From a virus (Duplodnaviria > Caudoviricetes), in IMG/VR virus record IMGVR_UViG_3300017645_000202, positions 1-63,311 of that record: 63,311 nt of DNA; one strand, written 5' to 3'. The first letter of the stretch is position 1. Each line of letters opens with the position of its first letter. The notes beneath the pieces were generated by a model that was given only the letters and a program-made list of their open reading frames with translations, ran no database searches and was not told where the DNA came from. Positions 1-36,375 of the stretch are shown piece after piece. The translations under genes and the position numbers were made by a program.

Positions 1-408
1 TCAGCCAATTGGGCGGTCGTCTTTCGATTGCTCGACGGTGAGCGTGCGCGACGGCAGCGGCCGCGTGACGACGTAGAGTGCGGAAGCCAGCAGTACCGCC
101 GCGACGGCGGCAGCCAGCCAAAACGTCGGATGGGCGCTGACGAGGAACAAGCCGAATCCGACCGACATGCCGACGCACGCAGCAAGCTTTGCAGCGCCCG
201 ACACGGCACCGGTTTCGTTCCACGCCCGCAACGGCGGGCCGAAGCGCGGATGCCCCAGCAGCCAAGCCTCGAAGCGCGGCGAAGAGCGCGTGAAGAACCA
301 GCTCGCCATGATGAGAAAAATGGTAGTGGGCATCAGAGGCAGGAACGCGCCGATGATGCCGAGCACGACCATCAGCCATCCGAGACAGATGTAGAGGATG
401 CGCCTCAT
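1..408 (-). CDS. ybaN: YbaN/DUF454 family inner membrane protein (host gene flanking the prophage)
   Basis: [48 protein letters not shown] is the typical DUF454 pattern; start placed at ATG 408 rather than the long ORF start at 579. Confidence 0.85.
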
Positions 409-575
409 TCCTCGCCCAGTGCTCGCGCCCGTTGCATGGCCCGCTCGCCTCGCGCTTCGGCCGCCGTGCCATCCGCTCGCGGCGGCGGGCGGCCTCAGCA
501 TCCCCACGCGCCGCATGCGTGGATCGGTGCCGTCGCGACCCTCCCCGATGGTGCGGCCATTCCCCGAGAGGACAC

Positions 576-2222
576 TCAATGGCCTCGCGGGCTGCGGTAA
601 ACGCTCACCTTGTATATGGCGAAGCTGGCCGACGCCAAGGCAGCCAGAGAATGGTTGCGGGGTCCCGCTACCATCGATATAGTCGCCTCAGCTTGATCGA
701 TAGGGTCCAGCATGACGGCGAGATCGCCACGCAGCTCCATACGCATGGTACCGTCGGCTTGGGCCGGATGAACGGTAATGCTCGTTATGAGCTTCCGAAC
801 CAGAGATATAGCTTCTTGGGCGGCTTCGTCCCCACGGCTCAGAGCCTCTGAAATGCGCTCGACCTGCTCGGCATATCGACGAGCCGCCGTGGGATGCAGC
901 TGCAGAACATTTTCATCGATGGTGGATGGCGGCACACGGGCGACCAACGCATCGCGCTCCGCCTCTAGCTCCGCCAGGCGTCCGGAGACGGTCCTGGAAC
1001 TCTCGCCATCCTCAATCGCTCGCACAAGGCGCGCGATCCGCATATCCAACGCCGCGAGCTCCTTCTCTACCTGCCGTGACGCCGCTGCACGCTTTGCGGC
1101 TGTCTCTGCACGTTCTATGCGGTATGCCTCGATGGACGCGCGGACGATCTCTGGGGACCGGAGATGCTTCTGCAAGACACTAAGAACGCGGCTTTCAATT
1201 TTGTCGATATGGATGCTTTTGCGATTCGAGCAAGTTCGCTTGCTACGCGCGTCCGAGCATCCGAAACTTGATTTCGTCACGATAATCATGTTCCCGCCGC
1301 AACATCCGCACCGGATTAGTCCAGAAAGCAGATGCTTCGCCCGGCGGCGATTGTGGAGGTGCTGCCTGGCTGTCGCCATCCGCCGTTCCTGCACAGCATG
1401 GAATGTCGCCTCGTCGACGATGGCAAGTTCCGGGGCTTCTTGAACAATCCACTCGGACCGCGGATTATTGACCGGTTTGCGTTTCCCGGTCGCTGGGTCC
1501 TTCACGAAACGCTGGCGGTTGTAGACAATCTGCCCGACGTACAGCCGGCTCATTATTATGCCGTTTTCTCGCTTCGGGGACCCATTTATCGTGGATGCGT
1601 TCCACTTTCCTCCGAACGGGGCCGGTATGCCATCCCGGTTCAATCCCTCGACGATATCTAGCGGGGAACGGCCAGCGATATATTCGGCGAAGATCCGGCG
1701 CACGATGGTGGCTTCCGCCTCGTTGATGGTGCGCAGTCCCTTTTCCTCACCTTTCACGACGTCATAGCCATACAGCTTTCCGCCCGGGACACGGCCCGCC
1801 TTCAGGCGGCCGATGTGCCCGCGCCGGGTTTTGAGCGCGAGGTTCTCAAGGAACATGTTGGCCATCAGCCCCTTGAGGCCGACTTGCATCGTCCCGACTT
1901 CGCCGTCAGCCAGGGTGATGATCTTCACGCCCCAACTGCGGAGCCGCTTATAGAGGCCGGCGCTGTCTTCCAAATCGCGGGACAGCCGGTCGATATCCTC
2001 GGCCAGAACCGCATCGAACTGCTTGTTCTGGGCCGCTACCATGAGATCGAGCAATCCCGGCCGGTTGTGCAGGGACGAACCTGAAATCGCGGCGTCTGAA
2101 TACTCTGCCACTACAGCCCAGCCTTCGCGCTGGGCCCGCTCACGACACAGGGCGGTTTGGTCCGTTATTGATCGCGCGTCCTGCAGATCGGACGAGAAAC
2201 GCGCGTAGATGGCGCAACGCAT
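576..2222 (-). CDS. Large serine recombinase (phage integrase)
   Basis: N-terminal AIYARFSS catalytic Ser motif, DRLSR, recombinase domain, [12 protein letters not shown] zinc ribbon, coiled coil. Confidence 0.95.
651..674. other. Candidate left attachment site (imperfect palindrome inside the integrase 3' end)
   Basis: ATGGTTGCGGG-GT-CCCGCTACCAT: 11-bp arms with 1 mismatch around a 2-bp centre; minus strand contains CCCCGCAACCA, matching an initiator tRNA-Met 3' end. Confidence 0.6.
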
Positions 2223-2368
2223 GACCTGTCTCCAGCGGCGTCGGCTTCCTGCTGCCGCTCGGCCGCATCATCGTCGCGGGCTGCCTGCCGTGCAAGCGCG
2301 CACCCGATCTTGATGAGAATCGCGTGGATGCCTGGTGGGTTGGCCTGTGGGCGTGGGGCCGACATCAT
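2165..2368 (-). CDS. Small integrase-adjacent protein (LARQAAR motif)
   Basis: ATG with GGAGG RBS; MMSAPRPQANPPGIHAILIKIGCALARQAARDDDAA; overlaps the integrase start. Confidence 0.5.
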   Translation of the reverse strand: MMSAPRPQANPPGIHAILIKIGCALARQAARDDDAAERQQEADAAGDRSCVAPSTRVSRPICRTRDQ

Positions 2369-2538
2369 GCCTCCGCTTGTGCAGGCGGACGCGCGGATCG
2401 GGTGCGTGGCGCCCGCCGGCAGGGCCGGAACAGGCGGGCGACGGCCCATTCTGAGACGCCGACCCAGGCGGCCACCTCTTTGACGCTCGCGCGCTGGGCG
2501 AGCAGCGCCATGCAGTCGGATTCCTGCTCGGCGGTCAT
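2365..2538 (-). CDS. Small HTH protein (57 aa), excisionase/RDF candidate
   Basis: Translated by hand (below track cutoff): MTAEQESDCMALLAQRASVKEVAAWVGVSEWAVARLF; ATGA overlaps on both sides. Confidence 0.6.
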   Translation of the reverse strand: MTAEQESDCMALLAQRASVKEVAAWVGVSEWAVARLFRPCRRAPRTRSARPPAQAEA

Positions 2539-3722
2539 GCCTCGGCGACCTCCCGCGAGCGCTGGGTGGCCGTGGTGGGGCGGGCACCTGGCATGCCGTT
2601 GTGCTCGACGCCATCCAGCAGGCGACCTGCGCGCTTCTTGCCGACGCGGACCATCGCGATCGCAGTTTCGTCGCTGACACCATCTGAGCGGCGGCAGCTC
2701 GGACCATTGACCAATCCGTCGGCGTGGACCCAGTTAGCGCCGTTTGTTGCCATCGAACTGTCGTAGTGGCCGTTCGCGTGCGAGGCGATCTCCCAATCCC
2801 CCCACTGCTTGAAGAAGAACGGGACGCCGGCGGCGGCGCACTGGTCGCGGACCGATCGCGCCCAGTCTGGATGCATCGGGCGGGCGCCGGCCTGGCTCTC
2901 ACCGCCGACGATGACCCAGTCCAGATGGACTGGCGGAATGTCCGGTGGTCCGGCCGGGCTGTCGACATCCCAGTCACCAACATACGGCATGCCGCTTTCG
3001 AAGTATCGGCCGGCTAGCGCATCGAGGTGGATGCCGGCGCGATACGAACCGGGTTTCTGCGGCACAAGGCAGACATAAGTGAGATCGATCGGCCCGAGCA
3101 GCGGCTCGAGAGAAACAAAGCGCACTGCCGCCGGCGTCGCCAGCAGATCGGGGATGCGCGCGTCGGCCTCCTGCTGGCGCTCGGCCGAGACGCCGAGCCA
3201 GACGTTGGAGAGGGGCCAGTCGACGTCTTCGAAAGCTCCGGCTGCGCACGGCGAGTCTGTCAGTTCCACGCACAAGCGGCCGAAGCGCTCGTCCATGCTA
3301 TCGGGACTAGCGTGGAAGGTGTCGACCACGACAGACATGTACGCTCGCATCCGTGCCGACCTCTTCGTCAGCACTTGAAACGTATGCTGCGGGCACAGCG
3401 CCATCACTGCGAACACCTGGTCGATCCATGCATCCGGCACGGACTCGTGGAACAGGTCGCCGTGCGCGCAGACGAAGATCATGCGCGGGCGCTTCCACTT
3501 CAGCGGCTCGAGCAGCGCCTTCTCGTTGAAGCGGACTTCGCCCGTCCATACCGGCCCGGTCTTTGACGGCTTGGTGAGGCCGGCGCGCGTCGGATGGTTC
3601 TTGAGGCGCGTGCCGGCGAGCCGCATGGCATAGCAGTTGGTGCAACCGGGGGAGATGATGGTGCAGCCGGTGACCGGGTTCCACGTCGCGTCGGTCCATT
3701 CGATGGTGGAGTGCTCAGCCAT
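2535..3722 (-). CDS. DUF5131 / phage Gp37-Gp68 family protein (three-Cys, radical-SAM-like)
   Basis: STIEWTDATWNPVTGCTIISPGCTNCYA, DLFHE, QVLTKR, SLEPLLG, WVIVGGES, FFFKQWG motifs. Confidence 0.92.
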   Translation of the reverse strand: MAEHSTIEWTDATWNPVTGCTIISPGCTNCYAMRLAGTRLKNHPTRAGLTKPSKTGPVWTGEVRFNEKALLEPLKWKRPRMIFVCAHGDLFHESVPDAWIDQVFAVMALCPQHTFQVLTKRSARMRAYMSVVVDTFHASPDSMDERFGRLCVELTDSPCAAGAFEDVDWPLSNVWLGVSAERQQEADARIPDLLATPAAVRFVSLEPLLGPIDLTYVCLVPQKPGSYRAGIHLDALAGRYFESGMPYVGDWDVDSPAGPPDIPPVHLDWVIVGGESQAGARPMHPDWARSVRDQCAAAGVPFFFKQWGDWEIASHANGHYDSSMATNGANWVHADGLVNGPSCRRSDGVSDETAIAMVRVGKKRAGRLLDGVEHNGMPGARPTTATQRSREVAEA

Positions 3723-5142
3723 TGGCAGTGCCTCCATCGGTGCCGATACGCTGGAAGCGGGGGAGGATGGAACTGGCACGCAATACCGCCACAAAGGTCT
3801 CATCGAGATTGAGGACTGCATGCCCCTTCCAAGCGCGTTCCAGCCCATCGAACGAATGCAGTGCGTCCGCTAGCGCCTCCACGATCTCCTGCACTGGTGG
3901 GCTGGAGAGCACGGCACGGGCGATGCGCTCGGCGTCGCGCTCCATGAGGCGCGGAGCCACCTTCAAAATCGCGACTGCCACTTCCTCCACCACATCATCG
4001 CTTGCGGTGGATGCAGCGGGGCCTGACTTGGCGAGGAAGTATTCGTGCAACCGCAGCCTAAAATCCGAAAGTTGGCTGAACACAAGCGAGCTTAGGCTCT
4101 CCGACGCATCACACAGCGAACTGTCGATGATCTCGGCGCGGCACCTATCGAATGCGGCCAGTAGCTGCGAGTCCTCGCAGCCTGCGGTGGGTGCAGCGGG
4201 GCCGGTTCCCTTAAGAGCGCAGGAAACACTGCTGCCGTCTTGACCGGCGACGGCCCCACGCTCTCGCTGCAATTTCTTGATCTGCTGTTTGATGCTCTCA
4301 GCAGTGATGACGTCCTCTGGGCCCCCATCTGCGAGCATTCGCTCAAGCGATGCGATATTGGCCGCGACGTAGACATCCCCGCCACCGACAGCCTCAGCCG
4401 CTGGCGGTGTGGGTGATGCTGCGAGCATGGCGCTGTAGCAGGCTCGGAAGAACGACTGCGAACTTGATGCGATTTTCGCTGCCGTCGCTGCGTCGGCCTC
4501 TGCTTCCGTCCCGCCAACGGCGATATATCCAGCGCGAAGCGAAGCGTAGATCATTTCCGGCGTCGGCTCTTTCGGCACCAACCGCCAGCCGTCAGGAGTG
4601 GGGTTTTTACTGAGGTCAGTAAAAACTCCGGGGACGCTCGTCTCTGCTCTTACCTGTGCTTGTGGCCCCGTGGATCGTGCTGCGAGCCGCGTAAAGTGTT
4701 CGATCTGATAGACCGGCACGTGGACGGTGTAGCCGTCCGCCGTACGGCTGTAGTCGTTCAACCACGTCGCGAGCCGAGCGCGATAATCGTCCCGCTCTGC
4801 CTCTAGCTCTGAGACGCGGGAGCGGAGAGATTGTATGTCGCAGCTCTGCTTCAGAGATCCGAGAATGAGCCTGCGCCACTCAGACGGCAGCGAATGGGGC
4901 CACCATCCTGGAACTAGCCGAAAGTTTTCGCCCTCGTCTGCGCTGCCAACCTGCTTGATCAACCCGCTATCGATGCAGAGATTGATCGTGTCGGGGCCTT
5001 GGCCCCTATCGTCGGCGAAATCGTCAATGCGAGGGTCTTCCGTGCTGAGGCCAGCAACCGCGAACACCATGCAAATTAAACGATGGCACTTGTCATCCAG
5101 CCGCTCGATCAGCTTGTCGATGTCCTCAGCCATTGGTGTCAC
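3715..5142 (-). CDS. Hypothetical mosaic early phage protein
   Basis: Long ORF coupled to its neighbours; contains the GWRLVPKEPTPEM segment common in Eaa/Ea22-like early proteins. Confidence 0.65.
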   Translation of the reverse strand: MTPMAEDIDKLIERLDDKCHRLICMVFAVAGLSTEDPRIDDFADDRGQGPDTINLCIDSGLIKQVGSADEGENFRLVPGWWPHSLPSEWRRLILGSLKQSCDIQSLRSRVSELEAERDDYRARLATWLNDYSRTADGYTVHVPVYQIEHFTRLAARSTGPQAQVRAETSVPGVFTDLSKNPTPDGWRLVPKEPTPEMIYASLRAGYIAVGGTEAEADAATAAKIASSSQSFFRACYSAMLAASPTPPAAEAVGGGDVYVAANIASLERMLADGGPEDVITAESIKQQIKKLQRERGAVAGQDGSSVSCALKGTGPAAPTAGCEDSQLLAAFDRCRAEIIDSSLCDASESLSSLVFSQLSDFRLRLHEYFLAKSGPAASTASDDVVEEVAVAILKVAPRLMERDAERIARAVLSSPPVQEIVEALADALHSFDGLERAWKGHAVLNLDETFVAVLRASSILPRFQRIGTDGGTANG

Positions 5143-5366
5143 TCCGTGATCAGAGGCTCAATCCCAGCGTCGCGTAATTGCTGGCGCAGGATGTCTCTGC
5201 CAAGCCGAGCAGCATCCCGTTCTTTGGTGAGGCGGTCGATCTCGTCGGCTGCTTCGAGTTCGATTGGCGATGGATATGCTTCATAGGTTTCCAAGACGCC
5301 GGCGCTGTTGAATTGCGATATTTTGCAAGGCGCGCGCAGCCGCTCTGCGATGCTCTGCTCAGCCAT
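5139..5366 (-). CDS. Hypothetical phage protein
   Basis: IAERLR...EAADEIDRL pattern of small early phage ORFs; overlapping start and stop codons. Confidence 0.7.
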   Translation of the reverse strand: MAEQSIAERLRAPCKISQFNSAGVLETYEAYPSPIELEAADEIDRLTKERDAARLGRDILRQQLRDAGIEPLITE

Positions 5367-5880
5367 GACCGCCTCCGTTAGAGGTGGGAGGGGCGATGCG
5401 GTAGCACTTGGCAGAGGCGTCGTAGGTCATTAGGCCGGGGAAGCGCGCTTTGATCAGATTAAGGTCCGCGCTCGCCTGCGGGACGCTGACCTCGCCGAGT
5501 CGCTGGATGTCAGCGCGGTTGAGAGAGCCGGTTGCCTTGAGATGGCGGATGGCGGCATGCAGTCTGTGGCGCACCTGCAAACGCAGCCCTGCCAACGGAT
5601 CTTCGGTACGCGCCTTGCGCGGTGCAGGCAATTCCTCCATCGAAATCCACTCGCCGCCGTCGTTGACCCAGATGTCGTCATCCCAGGTGAGTTCGATCAC
5701 CGTGTATTTGGTGCCGACGGGACGGCAGGCGATCAGTTCGCGAAGGAAGATGCGCACACGATCATAATCAAAGAACGCGCCTTTCTTCTCGGGAACGCGG
5801 CCTGGCTCGTGCACAAGAATGAACGCGCGCTTCACGCAGCTGTCGTCGAACATGCGCTCCGCGCTCTTTGCCTGTGTCAT
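5359..5880 (-). CDS. Protein with C-terminal CapW/BrxR-type winged helix and no WYL domain
   Basis: RL...GSLNRADI...VSVPQASADL...PGLMTYDASAKCYR resembles the N-terminal wHTH of CapW/BrxR regulators. Confidence 0.7.
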   Translation of the reverse strand: MTQAKSAERMFDDSCVKRAFILVHEPGRVPEKKGAFFDYDRVRIFLRELIACRPVGTKYTVIELTWDDDIWVNDGGEWISMEELPAPRKARTEDPLAGLRLQVRHRLHAAIRHLKATGSLNRADIQRLGEVSVPQASADLNLIKARFPGLMTYDASAKCYRIAPPTSNGGGHG

Positions 5881-6236
5881 GGCGTGGCCTCCCTACGCTG
5901 GGAGATTTTCGGGCCGTGGAACTCCAGCGCAGCGATATCCAGTCGTTCTATTTCCGCGATGATGAGCGCGGCAGCTCGCACGAGGTCGCGGCGTCGTGTC
6001 TTTGGCTTCCACCACGACCAGTCCCATGGCCACATGACACAGCCGTTGATCTTCGCTGTAGCCAGCGCGTAGCAAGCGGCGGCCTTCGCCAACTCGCCGT
6101 CGGCGTGCTGCGCGTCGTGTTCGGGCGTCCAGCCTTCAATCTGTTTTTGGCGCTCACGCTCGTATTGGACATCGGCTATCACGCTCGCCGTCATATGCAG
6201 TTTCCAGACCGCCCCATCTGCTGATGGCTTATCCAT
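5877..6236 (-). CDS. Conserved phage protein, probable MazG-like all-alpha fold
   Basis: ERERQKQIEGWTPEHD...AAACYA...WPWDWSWWKPK..RRDLVRAAALIIAEIERLD, a widespread phage family; fold is inferred. Confidence 0.6.
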   Translation of the reverse strand: MDKPSADGAVWKLHMTASVIADVQYERERQKQIEGWTPEHDAQHADGELAKAAACYALATAKINGCVMWPWDWSWWKPKTRRRDLVRAAALIIAEIERLDIAALEFHGPKISQRREATP

Positions 6237-6248
6237 GGGTGGCTCCCT

Positions 6249-6518
6249 TCAATGACAGGTTGAGCAGACGAGGCCGGGGCGCTTCATGCTCGCCATTACC
6301 TCGGCCGCAGTGGCTTCGGCTTGTTCCCCGGTTTCGGCATCAAGTTCGTCGAGATAAACGGTGACGGAGCCCGGCTCATCGACGAGCGAGATTTCCACGC
6401 TGTCCATATCGCGCTCGCTCAAACCGTATTCGACCATGTAGGCGGTGCGCGCCTGCTGCTCGTCGTCGGCCGCAATCCAATCCGTCTCGGCTGACGTTGA
6501 TATGGCGTACAGCTTCAT
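6249..6518 (-). CDS. Hypothetical acidic protein
   Basis: ATG 6518 overlapping the upstream stop; MKLYAISTSAETDWIAADDEQQA. Confidence 0.65.
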   Translation of the reverse strand: MKLYAISTSAETDWIAADDEQQARTAYMVEYGLSERDMDSVEISLVDEPGSVTVYLDELDAETGEQAEATAAEVMASMKRPGLVCSTCH

Positions 6519-6730
6519 CGTCCCTGCTCCTTGGCTTGTGCGATGAGTGCGCGGTACTCGGCATCCGTCAGACATTTGACGGCGAGCCCGCGCCGGACCC
6601 AGTCGGCAATGATTTCGGCGGTTTGCTCTTCGCACCCGGCATCGTCGCAGCACATGGCGCGCATGGAGCCATCGCTCTTTCGAATGGCGACGTAGATGAG
6701 CGCTTCCGCGTCCGTGAGGTCAGCCTGCAT
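6515..6730 (-). CDS. Hypothetical protein
   Basis: GGAGGGG RBS; coupled within the operon. Confidence 0.65.
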   Translation of the reverse strand: MQADLTDAEALIYVAIRKSDGSMRAMCCDDAGCEEQTAEIIADWVRRGLAVKCLTDAEYRALIAQAKEQGR

Positions 6731-6992
6731 CTACCCCTCCTGTGGCTCGGGAGAGGGCTGCATCGCGCTCCACCATCGCCTGCTTGAGATACACGGCGAG
6801 ATCGAGCGCCTCGGCGTAGGCATCGGCCAGCGCATCGCGGCCGTTGTGCGCCTGCAGCGGCGTGCCATAGCGCGCGCGGCCCACCTGGTCGCGCTCGCGC
6901 ATGTCGGCGATGACGAGCTCCCAGACGGGCACCGAACCGTTCGCCACCGGCGGCGGCTGGTCGATCGATGATGTGGTGCTCTGCTTCGTCAT
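6720..6992 (-). CDS. MazG/dNTP pyrophosphohydrolase-like phage protein
   Basis: RDQVGRARYGTPL..HNGRDALADAYAEALDLAVYL fits the R..G..(K/R)YG...E..D...Y pattern of all-alpha NTP-PPases. Confidence 0.6.
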   Translation of the reverse strand: MTKQSTTSSIDQPPPVANGSVPVWELVIADMRERDQVGRARYGTPLQAHNGRDALADAYAEALDLAVYLKQAMVERDAALSRATGGVDAG

Positions 6993-7195
6993 CGGATCAA
7001 TCCCCGGTCGCGCGCCAGCCATTCCGGCATGCTGATCTCGCCGGCACCGTCGATGCTCACCTGCCCTGCCGGCAGTACGACGCGCCGGGCCGCTGGGCAT
7101 TTCGTGCGGATGACGAGCGCGTGACCGCTGATGCTGACGATTTCGCACGCGATGCCGGTGCGCTCGGCGGTGATGTCGATCGCGGCCATGCTCAT
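6989..7195 (-). CDS. Small conserved phage protein
   Basis: C-terminal ISMPEWLARDRGLI motif; coupled ORF. Confidence 0.65.
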   Translation of the reverse strand: MSMAAIDITAERTGIACEIVSISGHALVIRTKCPAARRVVLPAGQVSIDGAGEISMPEWLARDRGLIR

Positions 7196-7632
7196 GCGCG
7201 GATCCTCACCACCTTGGGCGGACCGTTCGCGAACGGTTCGTCAGCGGGCACCAGCTCATCGCCGACGTGCGCGAACAGCACGTAGCCGGGACCTTCGGCG
7301 ATGACGATATCGAGCAGCGCCGGCCCGATGCGCGCCACCTGAAAGCCGCAGATGGTTTGCGTGAGCACCGGATCGCGCGGCGGCAGCTTGTCCTCGAAGA
7401 AACCTTTCGCCTCATAGAAGGCCTGGCGTGGCGTATCGCCGGCGCCCCAGATGCCGCTGGTGTCGAAGACGGCCCACCTTTTTGCTGACACGGGCGGAAG
7501 CGTCGAAACATTCGACGGAGGTTCAGCGAGCGGATGGCCGGCGCTCGCGCCGGGCGCCGTTGGCGCCTGAGCACCTTCGGTGCTGGGAGCGAGAGAGGCG
7601 GTGGCCGCGCGCGTGTCGTCAATTGGCGGCAT
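7192..7632 (-). CDS. Hypothetical protein
   Basis: ATG 7632 with GGAGG upstream; low-complexity N-terminus followed by a globular part. Confidence 0.55.
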   Translation of the reverse strand: MPPIDDTRAATASLAPSTEGAQAPTAPGASAGHPLAEPPSNVSTLPPVSAKRWAVFDTSGIWGAGDTPRQAFYEAKGFFEDKLPPRDPVLTQTICGFQVARIGPALLDIVIAEGPGYVLFAHVGDELVPADEPFANGPPKVVRIRA

Positions 7633-8059
7633 GGTGGGCCTCCGTGGCTGCGGCGGCGCGCTGGGCGCGGGCGGCGTCCAGCATGCGGATGCGTGCGCGG
7701 GCGCGGGCCCGGGATTGGGCATCGATGGCGCCGGCGTTGTTACCGTCGAGGTCGTGCCGGTTGCGGCCGAGCACGATGCGGCGCAGGTAGGCGCGCGTTG
7801 CCGTGTAGCGTCCCAGGCAATCGCGCAGGCGCTGTGCGTCGGCGCCGGGATAGCGGGCGAGCAGGTCGTAGTAGATGCCGATTTTGAGCGCGCGCGGGCG
7901 CGTGCCGTAGAACACGTCTGGCAGTGCGCGCGGGTCGCAGCGCAGGATCGCGCCCAGCTCGACACGCGCCGTGTGCATGGTGATGTGGTGGTCGGATGCG
8001 CCGGCCGCTGCGTGCTGCGTGCCGAATGCGTGGTGCGTTGCCGTGCTCGTCGTGGTCAT
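7619..8059 (-). CDS. proQ: ProQ/FinO-domain RNA chaperone
   Basis: PRALKIGIYYDLLARYP...LGRYT...YL..IVLG..RHDLDG...GAI are the FinO-domain signature motifs (LKIGI, Y..YL, R.DLDG). Confidence 0.88.
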   Translation of the reverse strand: MTTTSTATHHAFGTQHAAAGASDHHITMHTARVELGAILRCDPRALPDVFYGTRPRALKIGIYYDLLARYPGADAQRLRDCLGRYTATRAYLRRIVLGRNRHDLDGNNAGAIDAQSRARARARIRMLDAARAQRAAAATEAHHAAN

Positions 8060-8136
8060 CGATTCGTGCCCCCTAATCTGCGGGGCGCGGACGGCGGCCG
8101 GGAGGAATGCGCCGCGCCCACGCCCCGCAATGTCCC

Positions 8137-8424
8137 TCAGCCCCCGCTGCGGGAGTGTGCTGCGGCTGGCGCCGCCAACGTGCCGGCAAGCCGGCGTTCG
8201 ACGTCGTCGAGTTTCGCGAGCGCAAGGATGCCGCGCTGCTGTGCGTCGCGTGTGTGCTCGCGCTCGCGCCATGGCAGACGCGCGCCCTGGTCGTGGCGCT
8301 TGGCAACGAGCAGAAGAGCCTCGAGGGTGCCGCGCAGCTCGTCGCGCAGGGCGAACAGCGCGTGGCGCGCGTCGGCCTCTCGTCCCTCCGGGGTGCCGGC
8401 ATAGGCGCGCATGGCGCGCTCCAT
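8137..8424 (-). CDS. Hypothetical protein
   Basis: Helical-looking ORF in the leftward operon; start uncertain. Confidence 0.45.
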   Translation of the reverse strand: MERAMRAYAGTPEGREADARHALFALRDELRGTLEALLLVAKRHDQGARLPWREREHTRDAQQRGILALAKLDDVERRLAGTLAAPAAAHSRSGG

Positions 8425-8456
8425 TTCATCGCCGGAGGTGTCGCGTGACACGCCCA

Positions 8457-8786
8457 TTATCGCGACCTTCCGCGGTCGCTGGCTTCCTTGGCGGCCTGGA
8501 TGCGCTGGGCGCATTCGGTGCTGGAAGAGGGGCCGCCGGCGGCGGCAAGGGCATGAAAGACGACGTCGAGATCTGCCGTATGGGCAATCTCAGACAGCAT
8601 TTGTCTGGCTGCTGGTTCGGAAAGATCCGCTGCATCCACCGTTACGTGGTGCAGTTGTTCGAATTCTTTTGCGGCGAGCAGAACCCGGAAGGCGATATTG
8701 GCGCAGATTAACTCTGATGGCGGATAGACCGGTGGTCTCTCGCTACCCTTTGGTCCGACCTCGAAAATAAATGCTAGCTTCGACAT
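8457..8786 (-). CDS. Hypothetical protein (first gene of the leftward early operon)
   Basis: ORF directly downstream of the OL-like site. Confidence 0.5.
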   Translation of the reverse strand: MSKLAFIFEVGPKGSERPPVYPPSELICANIAFRVLLAAKEFEQLHHVTVDAADLSEPAARQMLSEIAHTADLDVVFHALAAAGGPSSSTECAQRIQAAKEASDRGRSR

Positions 8787-8825
8787 CGCAAATACACCCC
8801 AAACCGGAACGTCCCACATCGACGT

Positions 8826-8865
8826 GTAGGACAAATCCAACGTTCGGGCAATGGATTTGTTGGAT
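8826..8865. promoter_or_regulatory. OL-like operator region
   Basis: GTAGGAC-AA-ATCCAAC and GTTGGAT half-site are variants of the 9632-9647 palindrome. Confidence 0.55.
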
Positions 8866-8921
8866 GCGCTGACCCCAGGCGACGTTCCGGTCAGGAAATC
8901 CCCAGTGGATTACCGCGTAAG

Positions 8922-9554
8922 CTAGGCGCTGGGCGTCCAGCCGAGATCGGTATTCAGCGGATCAATAACGCCCACTATGACCCCGACGATCTGCGCGTCG
9001 TCCCTCTGGGTGTCCAGCGGGACGGCGTTGCCCTTCGAGGAGTTCGTGATGAGCAGCCGCGGGGGCACGTATTGCCGCAATAGCCGCACGGCCCGCCCGG
9101 GTTCGCCTGGCGGATGATAGGCGACCTGAACGGGCCGCAGCGGGCGCAGCGCATCCATCGCAGATTGGGAATCATCGACAACCAGCAGGTGGCCCGGCCG
9201 GATGCCGATGTTGTCGCAAACGTCGGAACCCGCCGTCCAAAGGTAGCGATTTGGGCCAATCAACGCTGCGAAAGGGTCGTTCTGATGAGGCTCATAAGGC
9301 GTCATATCGCTCTCGGTGAACCCTGGGAGCGCCTGCCCGTGACCCGCACCGAGGTGCGTAGGGTCCGCTTGCAGGATGATCGCCAGCTTGACGCGCTCCT
9401 CGAGCGGCAGATGCTTCTGCTTCCCCACCAGATACTCGTGCAAATATCCGCGGTGGCGGCCGAGCTGTGTTGAAACCCTCGACTCGCTAAATCGCATTTC
9501 GCGTAGCCGTTCGCGGATGAAGCGGCGAAGCGCATCCTGTTGGTCATCTTGCAT
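8922..9554 (-). CDS. CI-like phage repressor
   Basis: N-terminal HTH (SESRVSTQLGRHRGYLHEYL), degenerate S24-like C-domain (GIRPGHLLVVD...IVGVIVG), divergent from cro; alternative start 9590. Confidence 0.8.
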   Translation of the reverse strand: MQDDQQDALRRFIRERLREMRFSESRVSTQLGRHRGYLHEYLVGKQKHLPLEERVKLAIILQADPTHLGAGHGQALPGFTESDMTPYEPHQNDPFAALIGPNRYLWTAGSDVCDNIGIRPGHLLVVDDSQSAMDALRPLRPVQVAYHPPGEPGRAVRLLRQYVPPRLLITNSSKGNAVPLDTQRDDAQIVGVIVGVIDPLNTDLGWTPSA

Positions 9555-9586
9555 GGCCGTTAACTTATCCTGCACCCCCAGGTGCG

Positions 9587-9647
9587 GCATCCAACATAAT
9601 TAGCGCCAATTTATGATTGCCTCTTGACGGCGTTGGATGAATCCAAC
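9587..9647 (+). promoter_or_regulatory. OR-like operator and PR promoter
   Basis: TTGACG (9624-9629) followed by perfect inverted repeat GTTGGAT-GA-ATCCAAC (9632-9647); additional ATCCAAC half-site near 9589. Confidence 0.65.
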
Positions 9648-9658
9648 ATCCATGGATC

Positions 9659-9901
9659 ATGGAGACCGTCGAGCAATTCAGGATCCGAGTAGAGGCGTTC
9701 CTCGAAAGTACGGGCATGGCGAAGTCGAAACTCGGTCGTCTTGCCTGCAACGACCCGCGCTTCATCGACGATATGCGGGCCGGGATGGAGTTCCGCTCTG
9801 CGAAGGTTGGGCGCGTCGAGGCGTTCATGCGCGGTTACGAGGCCTGCCTCGCCGCAAGTACCGACGCGAAGGCGCAGGCGCACGAGTTGACGGTAGCGTG
9901 A
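9659..9901 (+). CDS. Cro-like regulator
   Basis: VEAFLESTGMAKSKLGRLACNDPRFIDDMRAG...RVEAFM, the alphaproteobacterial phage Cro-type pattern; divergent from cI. Confidence 0.8.
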   Translation: METVEQFRIRVEAFLESTGMAKSKLGRLACNDPRFIDDMRAGMEFRSAKVGRVEAFMRGYEACLAASTDAKAQAHELTVA

Positions 9902-10238
9902 AGCGGATGCGCTGGGCGCCGGGTTGGCCCCCGCGACGTTCAGAGGGTGCGCGTCCGCCGCACCGTGCCGTCCCTAGACGACGCGACCGATCCGGCTGGG
10001 CCCCATAGCAGCCGCCCGGGTCGGTGACCTCCAAGGGGGACAGGTAACGAGTACCCCCGACTTTTTCGGCCGGCGATGTCGAGCCGAAAGGGTGCCAGCG
10101 TCGAGCGCACCATGTGCGTTCCGCCCTGCCACCCGCCGGTGTGTCAGGACCTGTTGCGTCCGTTGCGTTCGCGTCTCGCTTTTTCTCTCTCACCCGGCCG
10201 GCGCCGCAATCGCCGGCCGGGCAACAGGGACGGGTCCC

Positions 10239-10913
10239 GTGCTCGACAACGTCGACGCCATCGCTGTGATTGCCGGGCTCGCGTGCATCGTGAGCGCGGT
10301 CGGGCTGCGGCTCGTCGACCGGCGCCATGATAAGCGCACCCGGCCGAGTCCCGTCCCCCGTCCCGGGTTGGACCCGGGGCGAGTCCCGGGGCAGGCGAGG
10401 TCCGGCCCGCGGGACGACAGCCGGGCCGGCGCGCCCGTTTCCATCATGCAACTCGGCACGCACGCGACCGCCGTCGAGTTCGTCGGCTGGATGCGCGCGA
10501 TGGGGTTCGCCGGATGCCGCCGCTCCGCTGCCGAGATCGTCGATTTTTACCGGTGGTTCTGCTCCGACCTGCACATCGCCCCGCTCGGCGAGGGCGAGTT
10601 TCTCGCGGCGCTGGGCAACCACCGGCAGGTGCGCAAAAAGCGCGACCGGATCAAGTGCCCCAAGACGGGCAAGGTGCTCAAGCTCGCGAGCGGCACGCCC
10701 GCGCGCACCCGCTATTACACCGTGCTCGATGCCGACACGGTGCGCCTGCCGACCGGCGTGGCGCCCGCTGCGCCCCGTGCTGAGTCCCGGCCCCAGACCC
10801 GGGAGTCCCGGGGGGATGGCCGGGGGCCGGTGCGCGCTCAGCCGCGCAAACAGGCCAATGCACGTCCATCCGCTGACGACCTGATCGCCGGCCACGAAAG
10901 GATCGCGGCATGA
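10239..10913 (+). CDS. Membrane-anchored hypothetical protein with a possible winged-helix domain
   Basis: TM segment AIAVIAGLACIVSAVGL, Pro/Arg linker, YRWFC...LGEGEFLAAL domain; start uncertain. Confidence 0.6.
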   Translation: MLDNVDAIAVIAGLACIVSAVGLRLVDRRHDKRTRPSPVPRPGLDPGRVPGQARSGPRDDSRAGAPVSIMQLGTHATAVEFVGWMRAMGFAGCRRSAAEIVDFYRWFCSDLHIAPLGEGEFLAALGNHRQVRKKRDRIKCPKTGKVLKLASGTPARTRYYTVLDADTVRLPTGVAPAAPRAESRPQTRESRGDGRGPVRAQPRKQANARPSADDLIAGHERIAA

Positions 10914-11338
10914 GCGGCTTTGTCGACAAGGTCGAGCGGCTTCCGCGCACATTCCTCACGGAGCGCGCGCAAGGCAAGCCCGCGCGCCGCAGCGTCGATG
11001 GGCCGACGGAGGAGGAAATTCACCGCTCCGTCATCGCTTGGCTTGAGCGTCGTGGCGCAGATCGTGTGTTTTTCTTCCACGTTCCGAACGGCGAGATTCG
11101 CCATCGCGGCGCGGCCGGAAAGCTGAAGGCGATGGGCACCAGGGCGGGCGTGCCTGACCTCGTGCTCATCAGGGACGGCCACGCGTACGGCCTGGAGATC
11201 AAGGCGGCAGGTGGGCGGCAATCGCCCGCGCAGCGGAACGTCGAGCAGCAATGGGAAAGGGCGGGCGCAACGTATGCCGTGACGCACGGTCTCGACTACG
11301 CGCTCGACCAACTGCGGGAATGGGGGCTGCTGGAATGA
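10910..11338 (+). CDS. VRR-NUC domain nuclease
   Basis: TEEEIH...FFHVPNGE...GTRAGVPDL...LEIKA..GRQSPAQ PD-(D/E)XK pattern. Confidence 0.9.
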   Translation: MSGFVDKVERLPRTFLTERAQGKPARRSVDGPTEEEIHRSVIAWLERRGADRVFFFHVPNGEIRHRGAAGKLKAMGTRAGVPDLVLIRDGHAYGLEIKAAGGRQSPAQRNVEQQWERAGATYAVTHGLDYALDQLREWGLLE

Positions 11339-11529
11339 GCAAGCAGGATTCCGGTTTCGTCGCACGCATCGCCGATGCGCTGCGCGGTGCTGTGCCGGTC
11401 AGCGACAGCGCACGCGCTGCGGCTGAGGGTGTGCGCGCCGCTTCGACCCGCGTCACAGCGTTGCCGAACGGACGGCTGCCGCCGCCGCCGACGCGGCCGG
11501 GGTACGAGGCTGATCTTTTAGACGACTGA
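11335..11529 (+). CDS. Hypothetical small protein
   Basis: ATGA overlap with the VRR-NUC gene. Confidence 0.5.
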   Translation: MSKQDSGFVARIADALRGAVPVSDSARAAAEGVRAASTRVTALPNGRLPPPPTRPGYEADLLDD

Positions 11530-11573
11530 CACGAGGGGATAGAGGCTTTGCTGATGGCGAACGGTTCACGAAC

Positions 11574-11711
11574 TGATGGCCGGCGCACTTGCGCCGAGCG
11601 CCCTTGGCGCTTGAGCCGCTGCGCGGCTGGTACGCGGCAGCCAAGGGCCCGTCATGGCGAAGCCATGCTCCGCATGGACGGCCGTCGCGGCGTTGCCGCG
11701 GCCATCAACGC
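11574..11711 (+). ncRNA. Structured repeat element E1 (multi-hairpin; candidate ncRNA)
   Basis: Closing stem TGATGGCC/GGCCATCA; hairpins CGGCGC-ACTT-GCGCCG, AGCGCC-CTT-GGCGCT, AGCCGC-TGC-GCGGCT, ATGGC-GAA-GCCAT, CGCGGC-GTT-GCCGCG. Confidence 0.55.
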
Positions 11712-11891
11712 TTTCGACAGTTGCCGCTGAGCGCTGCGTATCCGCGGGTGTCAGTAAAAGTTTGAGCCTCCGAGGCGGCAACCGCGGAGGCTCCAAGGTC
11801 GGAGCGCGGGGGGCGCTCCGTAGATGGGCATGGGGGTGCCCAGAACGACGCGCAGAATCTCATTCGCGCCGTTCTCGGTCAAGCCCCGTGA

Positions 11892-13082
11892 ATGAAAGAC
11901 GGGGACGGAGTGGCACACGAACTCTCGGGCATGTGCTGGCTGATCGATTTCCCATCACCGTCGATGAGGCTGGTGATGATGAAGATCTGCGACTGTGCAG
12001 ACGAAGACGGCACGAACATCTTTCCGTCCGTCGCCACGATCCAACGGGAGACGGGGCTCGGCCAGAGTACCGTCCGCGAATGCATCGCTGCGTTCGAGGA
12101 GGCAGGCCTTCTCATCGTGAAGGCGAACAAGTTCGGCAACCGTCAGGGCAAGACGACGACGATCCGGGAGCTGGACACCGACCGACTTCGCCTGATCACG
12201 GGTAAGCGTCGCCGCGGGCAGACGCCGATCCCGTCGACGCACGTTCTGCGTCGCGGCGAGATCGACATTCCAGCACGGTCCGGTGACAGCGACGAAACCA
12301 TTTCCGTCTTCGTGCCGGGCGCTGCGCTGCCCAGCTATGTGGATGCACGCGGTGAGCCGCGCGTCGCGCAAGCGTTTGCGCTTTTTCTGCGGGACGAGCA
12401 TGCCGCTGGTGAAGAGGGCACCCCTCCAGCCAGTGGAGGGGTAGATGCAGGCTCCACCCCTCCAGTGAGTGGAGGGGCACCCCTCCAGCCACTGGAGGGG
12501 TACCCCTCCAGCCAGTGGACCCCACCCCTCCAGCCAGTGGAGGGCACCCCTCCAGTGGCTGGACCCAACCCTTCACTTGACCCTTCCCTTAAAGACTCCC
12601 CCCCTCCCCCCCGCCGGCGGCGGGGGGTGAGAGAAGACGGGCTTCTCGACGAAGTTCGAAAGTCCAAGCGGCACTGTGGACGAGCGTTTGAAAAGCTGTT
12701 GGCGCCCCTGTTGACGAGGTTGCCGCTGAAAGCGCCCAAGCCAACGCAGGCGCTGGAAGCACTGGCAGACCTTGCAGAGGCTCAGCAGGACGACGTTCTG
12801 GACGAAGCGTTGTCGCTACTCACCACGCCGGGCACCAAGAACTATCGCGAGTTCGACGTTCGAGTTCCCAACATCGAAGGCGCCATCGACGCGGCAAACA
12901 AGATCATCACCAACCGCAAGATGCGCGACCATGGCCCGCTACTGTGGCGCGGCTCTGCAGCCTTCAACGAAGCGATTGCCAAGGTTCAAGCCGTCCACCC
13001 GGAATTCGCCTGGGAGCTGAGCCAGCGGGACATGGTCAAGCGTAGCGAGCTCAAGGCCTACGGCGTGGAGCAGCAGCCATGA
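11892..13082 (+). CDS. Phage replication initiator (N-terminal HTH, lambda-O-like layout)
   Basis: RLVMMKICDCADEDG..IFPSVATIQRETGLGQSTVRECI HTH; internal iterons; probable start GTG 11910. Confidence 0.85.
   Translation: MKDGDGVAHELSGMCWLIDFPSPSMRLVMMKICDCADEDGTNIFPSVATIQRETGLGQSTVRECIAAFEEAGLLIVKANKFGNRQGKTTTIRELDTDRLRLITGKRRRGQTPIPSTHVLRRGEIDIPARSGDSDETISVFVPGAALPSYVDARGEPRVAQAFALFLRDEHAAGEEGTPPASGGVDAGSTPPVSGGAPLQPLEGYPSSQWTPPLQPVEGTPPVAGPNPSLDPSLKDSPPPPRRRRGVREDGLLDEVRKSKRHCGRAFEKLLAPLLTRLPLKAPKPTQALEALADLAEAQQDDVLDEALSLLTTPGTKNYREFDVRVPNIEGAIDAANKIITNRKMRDHGPLLWRGSAAFNEAIAKVQAVHPEFAWELSQRDMVKRSELKAYGVEQQP
12420..12563. repeat. Replication origin iterons (6 copies)
   Basis: ACCCCTCCAGnnnnTGGA(GGGG) at 12420, 12456, 12479, 12502, 12524 and 12546; four copies are near-palindromic and two lack the GGG arm. 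Confidence 0.85.
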
Positions 13083-13694: not shown

Positions 13695-13709
13695 CGGATG
13701 GAGCGCGCC

Positions 13710-14369
13710 ATGAGCATCCATCCGCCAGCCACATCGTTCGTGCAGCCCGGCATGTTCGACGACGTGCGCCACACGAACTGGCCGTTCTCGCCGCTCGAGC
13801 CGCAGGCCTACGACCTCATCATGGCCGACCCGCCGTGGAGGTTCGAACTCTATTCGGAACGCGGCGAGGGCAAGAGCGCCCAGGCGCACTACGCCACCAT
13901 GACGCTCGACGACATCGCACACCTGCCGGTGGCGGATCTGGCGCGCGGAAATTGCCTGCTGTGGCTGTGGGCGACGGCGCCGATGCTCGACAAGCAGATC
14001 GTCATCCTGAAGCGCTGGGGTTTTCGCTTCGTCACCTCCGGCGTGTGGGTGAAGAAGACCGTCACAGGCAAGACCGATTTCGGCACCGGCTACGTGCTGC
14101 GCTCCGCGCACGAGCCCTTCCTCATCGGCGCGATCGGCGAGCCGCAGACCTCGCGCTGTGTGCGCTCGGTGGTCGAAGGCGTGCGGCGCGAGCATTCGCG
14201 AAAGCCGGAAGCAGCTTATCGCGCAGCGGAGGCGCTCGTGCCGGGCAGCGTACGCCGCGCCGATCTCTTCACCCGCGAAACACGCCCGGGCTGGGAAGCC
14301 TGGGGGAATGAAGTCGGGAAGTTTGATGAGCTTTCTGCTTCGGACACGAGCGGAGGGAAGCATGCCTGA
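13710..14369 (+). CDS. MT-A70 family N6-adenine methyltransferase
   Basis: IMADPPW, HYATM, LWLWAT, WGFRF...WVK, GYVLRSAHE, HSRKPE, LFTRE..PGWEAWGNE. Confidence 0.93.
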   Translation: MSIHPPATSFVQPGMFDDVRHTNWPFSPLEPQAYDLIMADPPWRFELYSERGEGKSAQAHYATMTLDDIAHLPVADLARGNCLLWLWATAPMLDKQIVILKRWGFRFVTSGVWVKKTVTGKTDFGTGYVLRSAHEPFLIGAIGEPQTSRCVRSVVEGVRREHSRKPEAAYRAAEALVPGSVRRADLFTRETRPGWEAWGNEVGKFDELSASDTSGGKHA

Positions 14370-17406: not shown

Positions 17407-17685
17407 ATGACCGACAAACGGGAAGCCAACATCGACGAGCTGCTGACGCTGGACGAGCGGCGACTGGAGCTGATGACCGTCCGCCATAACCTCCGCAAGG
17501 CGCTCTACATCGACGTGGTCGTGTGGGGGTTCTCGCACCGCATCTATCGCTCCGATGCGGAGAAGGTGTTCGCCGACATAGACGCGGCGGCAGGGCGGGA
17601 GCTGAGGGAGATCGAGGAGAAGTTCCGCACCTTGGGCGTCACGCCGTCCGAGTGGACGCCGCCGCCGGGGGACGAGGCGCCATGA
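17407..17685 (+). CDS. Hypothetical protein
   Basis: G-rich RBS; coupled to the methyltransferase gene. Confidence 0.65.
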   Translation: MTDKREANIDELLTLDERRLELMTVRHNLRKALYIDVVVWGFSHRIYRSDAEKVFADIDAAAGRELREIEEKFRTLGVTPSEWTPPPGDEAP

Positions 17686-34002: not shown

Positions 34003-34185
34003 AGGCGGCGGCGCGCTGGCGATGCCGCCTTCGCGTGGAATTTGAGCGCTAGGAACGTTGACTGCTCCCTGATGCAGGCGTTTCTTGGCGAACATCGGCG
34101 ACCGCGACTCGACTTCGTGAAGGATCTGGCGCGGCTTCCCGGCGGGCGGAAGAGTAGAGGTTCATACAATTATTTTGAGGGATCA

Positions 34186-36326: not shown

Positions 36327-36330
36327 GTGA

Positions 36331-36375
36331 GAACTATAGTTCACGCCACCAAGACAGCCAACTATAATTCACGCC
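36331..36375. promoter_or_regulatory. Toxin-antitoxin operator pair
   Basis: Palindrome GAACTATAGTTC; direct repeat AACTATA(G/A)TTCACGCC at 36332 and 36360. Confidence 0.65.

Follow-up and report, generated by a model that had tools for sequence, protein, structure and literature searches.

All characterized winged helix-turn-helix (wHTH) heads of the BrxR/CapW type are parts of ssDNA-sensing repressors of anti-phage systems, in which the head is followed by a WYL domain and a WCX domain. CapW belongs to CBASS (structures 7TB6 from S. maltophilia, 7TB5 from P. aeruginosa, and 9C5G from R. leguminosarum), and BrxR to BREX and defense islands (7T8K/7T8L from Acinetobacter and 7QFZ from E. fergusonii). 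The R32A and S42A/Q45A/S47A mutants of S. maltophilia CapW were made to disrupt DNA binding, and the equivalent mutants of E. coli CapW had lost detectable DNA binding (PMC9122588). A phage-borne branch of such heads lacks the sensor and has no function described in the literature searched; these searches found no study of stand-alone phage proteins having only WHD_BrxR (PF26109). Phage lambda Ea22 is a pro-lysogenic protein whose gene is located between exo and xis-int. It is tetrameric, and its C-terminal domain (CTD, 8DSX) follows a short N-terminal segment and a coiled coil. The NMR structure of the CTD is a dimer formed by all four strands, and its authors call the function of the CTD unknown (PMC10834534).

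The window, by which we mean the whole 63,311-nucleotide stretch of phage DNA analyzed, encodes a 173-amino acid protein composed of an Ea22-CTD-like domain, a linker, and a BrxR/CapW-type winged helix, in that order. Its features are listed from the 5' to the 3' end of the gene.

5888–5894, minus strand: Shine-Dalgarno sequence AGGGAGG, 7 nt 5' of the ATG, read from the sequence
5359–5880, minus strand: whole gene, 173 amino acids with an ATG start, from the open reading frame list and translation
5629–5841, minus strand: N-terminal domain, residues ~14–84, β1-β2-α1-β3-β4-α2, AF2 pLDDT 85–90
5581–5628, minus strand: linker, residues 85–100 (PAPRKARTEDPLAGLR), from AF2 pLDDT and alignment A1
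5386–5580, minus strand: winged helix-turn-helix of the BrxR/CapW type (Pfam 38.1 PF26109, WHD_BrxR), residues ~101–165, from profile and structure matches
5515–5517, minus strand: R122, which aligns with R32 of S. maltophilia CapW
5443–5487, minus strand: recognition helix region, residues 132–146 (SVPQASADLNLIKAR), from alignment to S. maltophilia CapW
5359–5361, minus strand: stop codon

The open reading frame reads as quoted in a preliminary description of this DNA, and its codon composition (GC3 0.75 versus GC2 0.46) is typical for real genes in the window. It shares 4 nt (ATGA) with the upstream gene and 8 nt with the downstream gene. Seven homologs were found at E ≤ 1e-3, the protein itself excluded, with identities of up to 71%. 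The linker is basic and conserved in full-length homologs (alignment A1), and its residues 85–91 have AF2 pLDDT values below 50; the relative position of the two domains is not fixed by the AF2 model of the whole protein (pTM 0.45). Searches with the whole protein yielded nothing significant in Pfam (best match Phage_gene29, E 0.015, 16 bits versus a cut-off of 29) or PHROGs (E 0.26 and 0.37) and no match in PADLOC or NCBIfam. Four homologs were likewise blank in PADLOC, with NCBIfam giving only two weak sub-threshold rows, both for P0008. The BFVD viral structure library returned nothing interpretable (one row, E 3.1e-4, rmsd 13). Among isolated phages, megablast with positions 3000–12000 and tblastn with the 173-amino acid protein or P0011 gave no match, and P0021 gave one; a genome collection searched with the 173-amino acid protein alone also gave none.

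Residues ~98–165 form a winged helix of the CapW/BrxR type, as the preliminary description had proposed, with significant matches to both families by profile and by structure. The best match of a single-sequence phmmer search of the PDB was S. maltophilia CapW (7tb6, E 2.1e-4, query 105–164 versus chain 15–74). A profile of eight homologs matched CapW (7tb6, E 2.5e-12; 7tb5, 1.9e-10; 9c5g, 3e-8) and BrxR (7t8k, 1.2e-5), and a profile of the stand-alone family matched CapW at 1.1e-22 and BrxR at 7.8e-10 (overall range 1.1e-22 to 1.2e-9). With both profiles, no PDB sequences other than CapW and BrxR matched significantly. CapW and BrxR also account for the five best structural matches of the head (Z 11.3 to 8.8, rmsd 1.2–2.3, 67–71 residues). 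BrxR 7qfz was the best of these (Z 11.3, rmsd 1.2 over 71 residues); other superpositions were on 7t8k, a DNA complex (Z 9.3), 7tb5 (Z 9.0), 7tb6 (Z 8.8, rmsd 1.2 over 68 residues), and 9c5g (Z 7.9). Sequence identity to the solved CapW chains is 28–31%. The AF2 model of the head consists of three helices (101–117, 122–129, and 133–146) and a two-strand wing (151–154 and 159–162). PF26109 is precomputed on four of the seven homologs, and the aligned part of the Atlas structure row reaches the naming bar for this family. The wHTH pattern given in the preliminary description is present overall, the exception being an isoleucine at one position of its ..Y...P element (LNLIKARFP). In the phmmer alignment, S132, Q135, and S137 correspond to S42, Q45, and S47 of S. 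maltophilia CapW, and R122, the equivalent of R32, is the sole invariant column of alignment A1. Like CapW, the protein is expected to bind DNA as a dimer. Winged helices may also mediate protein-protein or RNA binding.

Neither a WYL nor a WCX domain is present, whether in the protein or in the rest of the window, which bears out what had been noted from the translation. Pfam detected no WYL in the 173-amino acid protein, and a six-frame search of the whole window with PF13280 gave no matches (the positive control was found in 7 of 14 genomes). Only 12 residues remain after the wing, leaving no room for a WCX or BrxR_CTD domain, and an HMM built from 13 full-length regulators, covering their last 205 residues, did not match the protein. 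Unlike CapW, the protein therefore lacks ssDNA sensing. Its predicted dimerizing domain is unrelated to that of CapW and precedes the head instead of following it, and its gene lies in a phage operon and not beside a defense system. The same differences hold with respect to BrxR, and where Acinetobacter BrxR has its base-reading motif SRQQ, the 173-amino acid protein has SVPQ.

The N-terminal domain, correctly described earlier as unrelated to WYL and WCX, is homologous to the dimeric CTD of lambda Ea22. This dimerization module is a new finding here. A profile search of the PDB had 8dsx, the Ea22 CTD, as its sole match (E 0.0035), and hhalign aligned the domain with Ea22 at 91% (E 1.1e-6, 32% identity over 62 columns), the match spanning Ea22 residues 110–173 only. 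Structural comparison with the Ea22 CTD gave a Foldseek TM of 0.62 by target (30% identity) and a VIA Z of 7.0. The order of strands and helices (β-β-α-β-β-α) is the same in the model and the NMR structure, and the dimer face appears to be shared as well, as judged from the models. In contrast to Ea22, the domain comes first in the protein (from residue ~14), lacks a preceding coiled coil, and is followed by a winged helix.

Prediction of an N-terminal domain homodimer gave a score of 0.55, versus 0.00 for the best of three controls. The mark for a homodimer was reached by 20 of 30 proteins solved as same-chain pairs and 1 of 23 solved as single chains, and is approximate here since our own alignment was used. 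At least 90% of contacts agreed among the runs, and the partner pLDDT was at least 70. The predicted interface (residues 17–24, 29–35, 58–64, and 68–77) comprises the four strands. The domain is thus predicted to homodimerize through its β-sheet face, although the prediction may reflect resemblance to the Ea22 CTD dimer structure released in 2023 and not be independent evidence. The domain would take over the role of dimer scaffold that WYL-WCX has in CapW and BrxR. The fusion is apparently the first functional hint for the Ea22 CTD, a module that here would pair DNA-binding domains.

As judged from sequence relationships, the head belongs to an old and diversified clade that lacks the sensor. 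It sits in a set of 59 rows (SH-aLRT 97) that contains none of the 17 WYL-bearing rows. Its identity to any of the 17 WYL-bearing heads is at most 45%, as compared to 62–74% to sensor-less heads, and it was therefore not copied recently from a host repressor. Small stand-alone proteins make up most of its nearest relatives, and their clusters carry mainly viral labels. Among the best 150 representatives, 119 match the C-terminal domain only, and 75 of these are stand-alone; both domains occur over the full length only in P0002, P0003, P0004, and P0100 among the representatives listed. Stand-alone phage proteins having only PF26109, such as CPT_Sonora_088, belong to the same sensor-less clade, and the window protein differs from them by its additional Ea22-CTD-like domain. 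The N-terminal part of another relative, P0037, resembles a winged HTH at E 0.3–0.8 only, which we do not count as evidence.

The gene is part of a tightly packed leftward operon, with no intergenic DNA upstream of it, and a large serine integrase is encoded on the same strand ~3.1 kb downstream. In two further viral contigs, L013 and L014, genes for the N-terminal domain likewise precede a homologous integrase by ~2 kb, and the position of lambda ea22 in the leftward operon, close to int, is similar. The label 'early operon' is inferred from gene order; a consensus scan of positions 2000–12000 gave no sigma-70-like promoters. Neighboring genes are small and without assigned function, with no defense-family match in Pfam or PHROGs, and the upstream neighbor (5877–6236) has no PDB sequence match.

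We consider the protein, with a probability of about 0.6, to be a constitutively dimeric, sensor-less, sequence-specific DNA-binding regulator expressed from the leftward prophage operon close to the integrase. The Ea22-CTD-like β-sheet domains of two copies would pair, and the dimer would offer two BrxR/CapW-type winged helices to a two-fold symmetric site of ~20 bp, acting as a non-inducible regulator and most simply as a repressor. Because the ssDNA-sensing WYL-WCX portion is missing, DNA damage or infection signals could not release binding, and the protein is probably an always-on DNA binder. The dedicated dimerization domain, absent from stand-alone copies, suggests a DNA-binding dimer that is self-sufficient and non-inducible. 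Of these properties, the dimer is predicted, whereas we infer that the protein binds DNA, recognizes a palindromic site, and represses. Phage sites or non-defense host sites are at least as likely to be the target as host defense operators, and the ea22-like position suggests a role in lysis-lysogeny or early-gene control. A target on the phage would mean that one DNA-binding module serves both the defense regulators and a group of phage regulators.

The preliminary description had instead proposed a candidate super-repressor of host defense. In this reading, the dimer, lacking the WYL sensor, would hold CapW/BrxR defense operators shut despite ssDNA or damage. Such an activity would be a new kind of counter-defense, at the level of transcription. 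We find this reading possible but doubtful, and we are equally hesitant about its wider form, in which the phage branch of sensor-less heads, here equipped with an Ea22-like dimerizer, locks host WYL-regulated defense promoters at basal activity. In its favor, the characterized relatives of the head are defense-operon repressors only, the DNA-binding residues of CapW are conserved in the aligned sequence, and the gene is within what seems to be an accessory early region. Where the recognition helix begins, WYL-bearing P0077 has the same sequence, VSVPQASADL, and WYL-bearing P0107 departs from it at one position. The nearest Atlas clusters are stand-alone heads, with a viral label on 50–100% of the few members having a record, and of 49 matches in sampled Burkholderiales genomes, 45 fall in open frames at least 269 amino acids long, which matches full regulators in size. 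The stand-alone 75-amino acid homolog CPT_Sonora_088 is encoded in a row of small hypothetical genes in Stenotrophomonas phage Sonora, which infects the species that CapW 7TB6 comes from. According to a preprint (10.1101/2025.11.13.688357), a WYL-controlled BREX system yields more defense protein when derepressed, which helps cells overcome phage counter-defense, so that blocking derepression could pay for a phage. The same preprint also reports that parallel WYL repressors in one cell act without crosstalk and that blocking a first infection needs no derepression, both of which speak against a super-repressor. So does the system specificity of the published CapW and BrxR operators, the CapW proteins of three species each binding their own distinct palindrome (PMC9122588). 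The S-x-PQAS residues are conserved family-wide, and the main base-reading residue of Acinetobacter BrxR is R38, the second residue of the SRQQ motif. By manual alignment R38 falls at the variable x position, and the shared motif therefore does not imply a shared site. The 59-row set without a WYL row and the low identity to WYL-bearing heads give no sign of recent mimicry, and relatives of the head are joined to unrelated partners such as YqaJ exonuclease. Good coverage of the stretch among sequencing runs is confined to soil metagenomes.

It is improbable that the protein is a developmental factor in which the Ea22-CTD-like domain is the functional part and the winged helix merely localizes it to DNA; the lambda relative of this domain favors lysogeny through some host partner. 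The homology to the Ea22 CTD and the position by int fit such a factor, as does the wide occurrence of the domain by itself: 27 of the best 150 representatives match it alone, 20 of these being stand-alone, and it was confirmed in eight viral contigs with no winged-helix gene within the stretches examined. The mobile β3/β4 loop of Ea22 has been proposed as a ligand for a host protein, although Ea22 is not known to have a partner (PMC10834534). However, this conserved loop (HRYYGVGG) is not kept in the window family, which has LTWDxDLW there, and the conserved surface of the modeled domain appears to be the dimer interface itself. A search for partner domains of the N-terminal domain gave none: nine of ten proteins carry no Pfam family, and the tenth, L003, is a winged-helix locus with YqaJ. 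Genes for the N-terminal domain and for the head are never adjacent in 14 viral stretches, and there is thus no split-gene support for a functional link between them. Anti-CRISPR-associated (Aca) HTH proteins repress the promoter of the gene block they sit in, and by analogy the winged helix could repress the promoter of its own accessory, possibly anti-defense, gene block. The gene does lie among small genes without assigned function in the early-left arm, and BrxR and CapW are themselves autoregulators. However, since the gene overlaps the preceding one by 4 nt, it lacks both intergenic DNA on its upstream side and its own promoter, and no inverted repeat adjoins it, which makes this reading very improbable. 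We regard as extremely unlikely that the protein is a poison subunit or decoy, disturbing the host regulator rather than replacing it, through pairing of the phage head with a host CapW or BrxR winged helix or titration of the operator-bound form. The two heads are adjacent in CapW and BrxR dimers, and head-to-head contacts are thus conceivable. In the published structures, however, these dimers are held together by a domain-swapped linker, WYL, and WCX, all missing from the phage protein, whose own predicted dimerization domain argues for a self-sufficient dimer. A disturbed repressor would also raise defense expression and thereby harm the phage.

A palindrome search of positions 1–12000 gave none assignable to the 173-amino acid protein. 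A 30-bp AT-rich palindrome (4600–4629) was set aside, as it falls within coding sequence and there is no clear repetition of its half-site. ATCCAAC half-sites are clustered at two intergenic places, for which a phage repressor is the simpler explanation. The candidate repressor at 8922–9590 had no PDB sequence match and a single weak PHROG match, which was UmuD-like (E 5e-4).

The gene at 5359-5880 on the minus strand encodes a 173-amino acid protein, here the window protein, that presents a BrxR/CapW-type DNA-binding head in a new architecture: it lacks the ligand-sensing and dimerizing WYL-WCX part (the sensor), carries an Ea22-like domain as its probable dimerizer, and lies within a large, unstudied phage branch. 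The C-terminal sequence quoted in the preliminary description is an exact translation of this frame. Codon-position GC content (GC3 0.75, GC2 0.46) is as in real genes of the window; at its start the gene shares 4 nt with the stop of the gene before it, and at its stop it shares 8 nt with the start of the next gene. In a collection of 5.8 billion proteins, the window protein has seven other matches at E <= 1e-3, three of which span both halves with 59–71% identity. No significant match to it was found in Pfam, PHROGs, PADLOC, or NCBIfam.

The C-terminal domain (residues ~98–165) is a BrxR/CapW head. S. maltophilia (Sm) CapW 7tb6 is the top PDB match of the single sequence (E 2.1e-4, residues 105–164 against chain residues 15–74), and a profile of eight homologs matches CapW 7tb6 (2.5e-12), 7tb5 (1.9e-10), and 9c5g (3e-8), and BrxR 7t8k (1.2e-5). 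The same CapW/BrxR chains are matched at 1.1e-22 to 1.2e-9 by a profile of the C-terminal part with 75 stand-alone relatives. In the AlphaFold2 model, the head forms three helices and a two-strand wing, with pLDDT of 83–92 over most of it (whole-protein mean 78). In structural comparison, the top five matches are all of this kind, led by BrxR 7qfz (Z 11.3, rmsd 1.2 across 71 residues), 7t8k (Z 9.3), and 7t8l (Z 9.1) and followed by CapW 7tb5 (Z 9.0) and 7tb6 (Z 8.8); a Foldseek comparison, suggested previously, ranked CapW 7tb6 and 7tb5 first. The ESM Atlas family name is WHD_BrxR (PF26109, Pfam 38.1), and the aligned part reaches the Atlas naming bar. These matches bear out the earlier recognition of a CapW/BrxR-type winged helix at the C terminus. 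R122, S132, Q135, and S137 lie opposite R32, S42, Q45, and S47 of Sm CapW in the PDB sequence alignment. The R32A and S42A/Q45A/S47A mutants of Sm CapW were made with the aim of disrupting its binding to DNA, and the corresponding mutants of E. coli CapW are described as having no detectable DNA binding (PMC9122588). The claimed absence of the sensor also holds: only 12 residues remain after the wing, Pfam detects no WYL in the protein, and a six-frame search of all 63,311 bases yielded no match to PF13280 (the positive control matched in 7 of 14 genomes).

The N-terminal domain (N-domain, residues ~14–84) is modeled as β1-β2-α1-β3-β4-α2 (pLDDT 85–90) and is like the C-terminal domain (CTD) of lambda Ea22, and is unrelated to WYL or WCX, in agreement with the earlier description of an unrelated N-terminal domain. 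For a 30-relative profile, the Ea22 CTD (8dsx, E 0.0035) was the sole PDB chain at E <= 1. Aligning this domain's profile to lambda Ea22 with hhalign gave 91% (E 1.1e-6, 32% identity over 62 columns, Ea22 residues 110–173), and pairwise BLASTP gave 6e-7. Structural comparison to the Ea22 CTD gave a TM of 0.62 by target with 30% identity in Foldseek, and Z 7.0 with an rmsd of 2.9 over 62/65 residues in VIA. [quoted passage not shown] The N-domain probably dimerizes as well, as suggested by a homodimer prediction scoring 0.55 versus 0.00 for the best of three controls, with at least 90% of contacts agreeing between runs and a partner pLDDT of at least 70. Among proteins of known structure, 20 of 30 same-chain pairs and 1 of 23 single chains pass the mark for this prediction, counts that hold only roughly because our own alignment was used. 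The predicted interface (residues 17–24, 29–35, 58–64, and 68–77) corresponds to the four strands; since the Ea22 dimer had already been solved, the passed prediction may reflect this likeness rather than independent evidence.

An exhaustive profile search of 1.84 billion representatives returned 1659 proteins at E <= 1e-3, of which 419 were at E <= 1e-10. Among the best 150 of these 1659 matches, and with stand-alone defined as flanks under 50 amino acids, 119 have the head only (75 stand-alone, 25 N-terminally extended, and 19 C-terminally extended), 27 have the N-domain only (20 stand-alone), and four have both. In two of the latter (P0004 and P0100), the match takes in both domains wholly or for the most part; in the other two (P0007 and P0014), it covers the N-domain in part. 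Pfam WYL occurs in only 4 of the 44 extension-bearing heads among the matches listed; other domains on these 44 are HTH_3 (2), HTH_31 (2), YqaJ (1), MqsA (1), and an Xre-like HTH (1). For 147 heads (those listed, 17 with WYL, six from viral loci, and that of the window protein), we inferred a quick maximum-likelihood tree. The tree rests on only 100 columns and leaves many forks unresolved; in it, the head of the window protein belongs to a 59-row set (SH-aLRT 97) of 43 stand-alone, 12 N-extended, and 3 C-extended heads plus itself, with none of the 17 WYL-bearing heads. It is 62–74% identical to its nearest sensor-less relatives, versus at most 45% to any WYL-bearing head in the tree. The nearest Atlas clusters consist of 68–87-amino acid proteins; of the few members that have a record, 50–100% are labeled Viruses (Uroviricota). 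One further viral contig, L003, carries a fusion:

5287-6216, plus strand (L003): YqaJ (lambda-Exo-like) nuclease domain and sensor-less BrxR-type head in one stop-to-stop frame

In another viral contig, L002, a BrxR-type head lies midway in a longer open frame (3-1025, plus strand) with repeats of the peptide ALPAPHVPKQEP, which recurs in the next ORF.

In cellular genomes, the picture differs. The 13 loci confirmed in a collection of species-representative genomes are all 303–336-amino acid open frames (34–40% identity), and WYL follows above the Pfam cut-off just downstream in the same frame in all five of those genomes tested. In a Burkholderiales sample (order by record titles), 42 of 301 genomes have a head match, in 49 places; 45 of these are in open frames of at least 269 amino acids, frame length being the only criterion, and four are in frames of 105–145 amino acids, at least two of them no more than 500 bases from a contig end. 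The sole relative surfacing among isolated phages is CPT_Sonora_088 of Stenotrophomonas phage Sonora, a 75-amino acid hypothetical protein whose gene is one of a long series of small genes. In openly searchable full-text papers, we found no description of phage-borne sensor-less BrxR/CapW heads and no link of Ea22 to a DNA-binding domain.

The window comes from an IMG/VR provirus with an estimated completeness of 78%; among sequencing runs, only soil metagenomes cover the stretch well.

Features of the window
579-2222, minus strand: large serine integrase
5877-6236, minus strand: 119-amino acid gene just upstream of the gene studied (phrog_9434, E 2.8e-36)
5888-5894, minus strand: strong Shine-Dalgarno sequence AGGGAGG ahead of the gene studied
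8922-9590, minus strand: candidate repressor (weak UmuD-like PHROG match, E 5e-4)
11892-13082: replication-type HTH protein
38356-40032: terminase
40725-42104: major head
43727-45085: portal
49949-52639: tape measure
54391-56958: tail fiber

From ~8840 down to the integrase, every gene is on the minus strand and tightly packed. There are 12 copies of the heptamer ATCCAAC in the window where 5.3 are expected, and five of them are in two intergenic spots. At 8835-8865, directly before the first leftward gene, there is an inverted pair, ATCCAAC-N17-GTTGGAT. At 9589-9647, between the candidate repressor, which has no PDB match, and a small ORF (9659-9901, plus strand), there are three copies, one pair forming GTTGGAT-GA-ATCCAAC. 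These spots look like putative left and right operators of an immunity region. The gene therefore most likely belongs to an early-left operon, but a sigma-70-like consensus scan of 2000-12000 returned no promoters. Its placement resembles that of ea22 in lambda, between exo and xis-int, in that int lies a few kb downstream; in two other viral contigs (L013 and L014), a serine integrase homolog (39% identity) is likewise found ~2 kb downstream of an N-domain gene. The product of 5877-6236 aligns with the C-terminal ends of many PHROG families of greater length (phrog_9434 and nine more); it gave no PDB sequence match and, in Pfam, nothing at E <= 0.01. A homolog in viral contig L008 comes after the N-domain gene.

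CapW and BrxR bind imperfect palindromes of ~19–25 bp as dimers held by a swapped linker, WYL, and WCX (PMC9122588 for CapW), and it is proposed that, once ligand occupies WYL, the heads rotate and come off the DNA. The window protein retains the head, with the residues on which DNA binding depends, but is without the dimer-holding and ligand-sensing parts and has another dimerizer instead. The simplest reading, to which we give a probability of about 60%, is a predicted constitutive, non-inducible dimer: the protein would pair through its own dimerizer, the paired heads would bind a two-fold symmetric DNA site, and, without the sensor, they could not be induced off it. No site assignable to the protein was found among the palindromes in 1-12000.

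The preliminary description, whose observation is confirmed and whose interpretation is partly supported, proposed the protein as a candidate super-repressor of host defense operons. The defense-only pedigree of the head's characterized relatives, the largely viral labeling of the sensor-less branch, and the accessory early position of the gene agree with such a role, as does the start of the recognition helix, VSVPQASADL, which is identical in P0077 and differs once in P0107, both of them WYL-bearing representatives. We nevertheless consider it improbable, as the sensor-less clade is old and diverse with varied fusion partners, and CapW/BrxR operators are system-specific. Moreover, 10.1101/2025.11.13.688357 reports that crosstalk is lacking among WYL repressors and that derepression is unnecessary for stopping a first infection. 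R38, the second residue of the SRQQ motif, is described as the residue of Acinetobacter BrxR that chiefly reads the bases; in our own manual alignment, it falls on the variable x of S-x-PQAS, so conservation of this motif says little about specificity.

The window has several other features. The leftward operon also encodes a ProQ/FinO-domain protein (7619-8272, minus strand; Pfam E 4.3e-17), a candidate phage RNA chaperone, and a DUF5131 (phage Gp37/Gp68) protein (2535-3848, minus strand) adjoins the integrase. A 30-bp AT-rich near-perfect palindrome (4600-4629; 14-nt arms, 13/14 paired, 2-nt spacer) lies inside a 475-amino acid ORF (3715-5142, minus strand), in its phrog_5913-matching part; its half-site has no exact copy elsewhere and three one-mismatch copies (5 matches versus 0.5 expected). 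Two DNA methyltransferases are encoded on the plus strand, an MT-A70 (13698-14369) and a 576-amino acid phrog_116 match (17523-19253). The loci 35746-36344 (minus strand) and 34042-34722 (plus strand) are in a lower-GC stretch (GC 0.57–0.59) between the phage's two halves, which contains a toxin-antitoxin-like pair, Gp49/HigB-like (E 3.5e-4, under the Pfam cut-off) and an HI1420-type HTH antidote (E 2e-27), with a YfbU-domain protein (E 1.8e-17) nearby.
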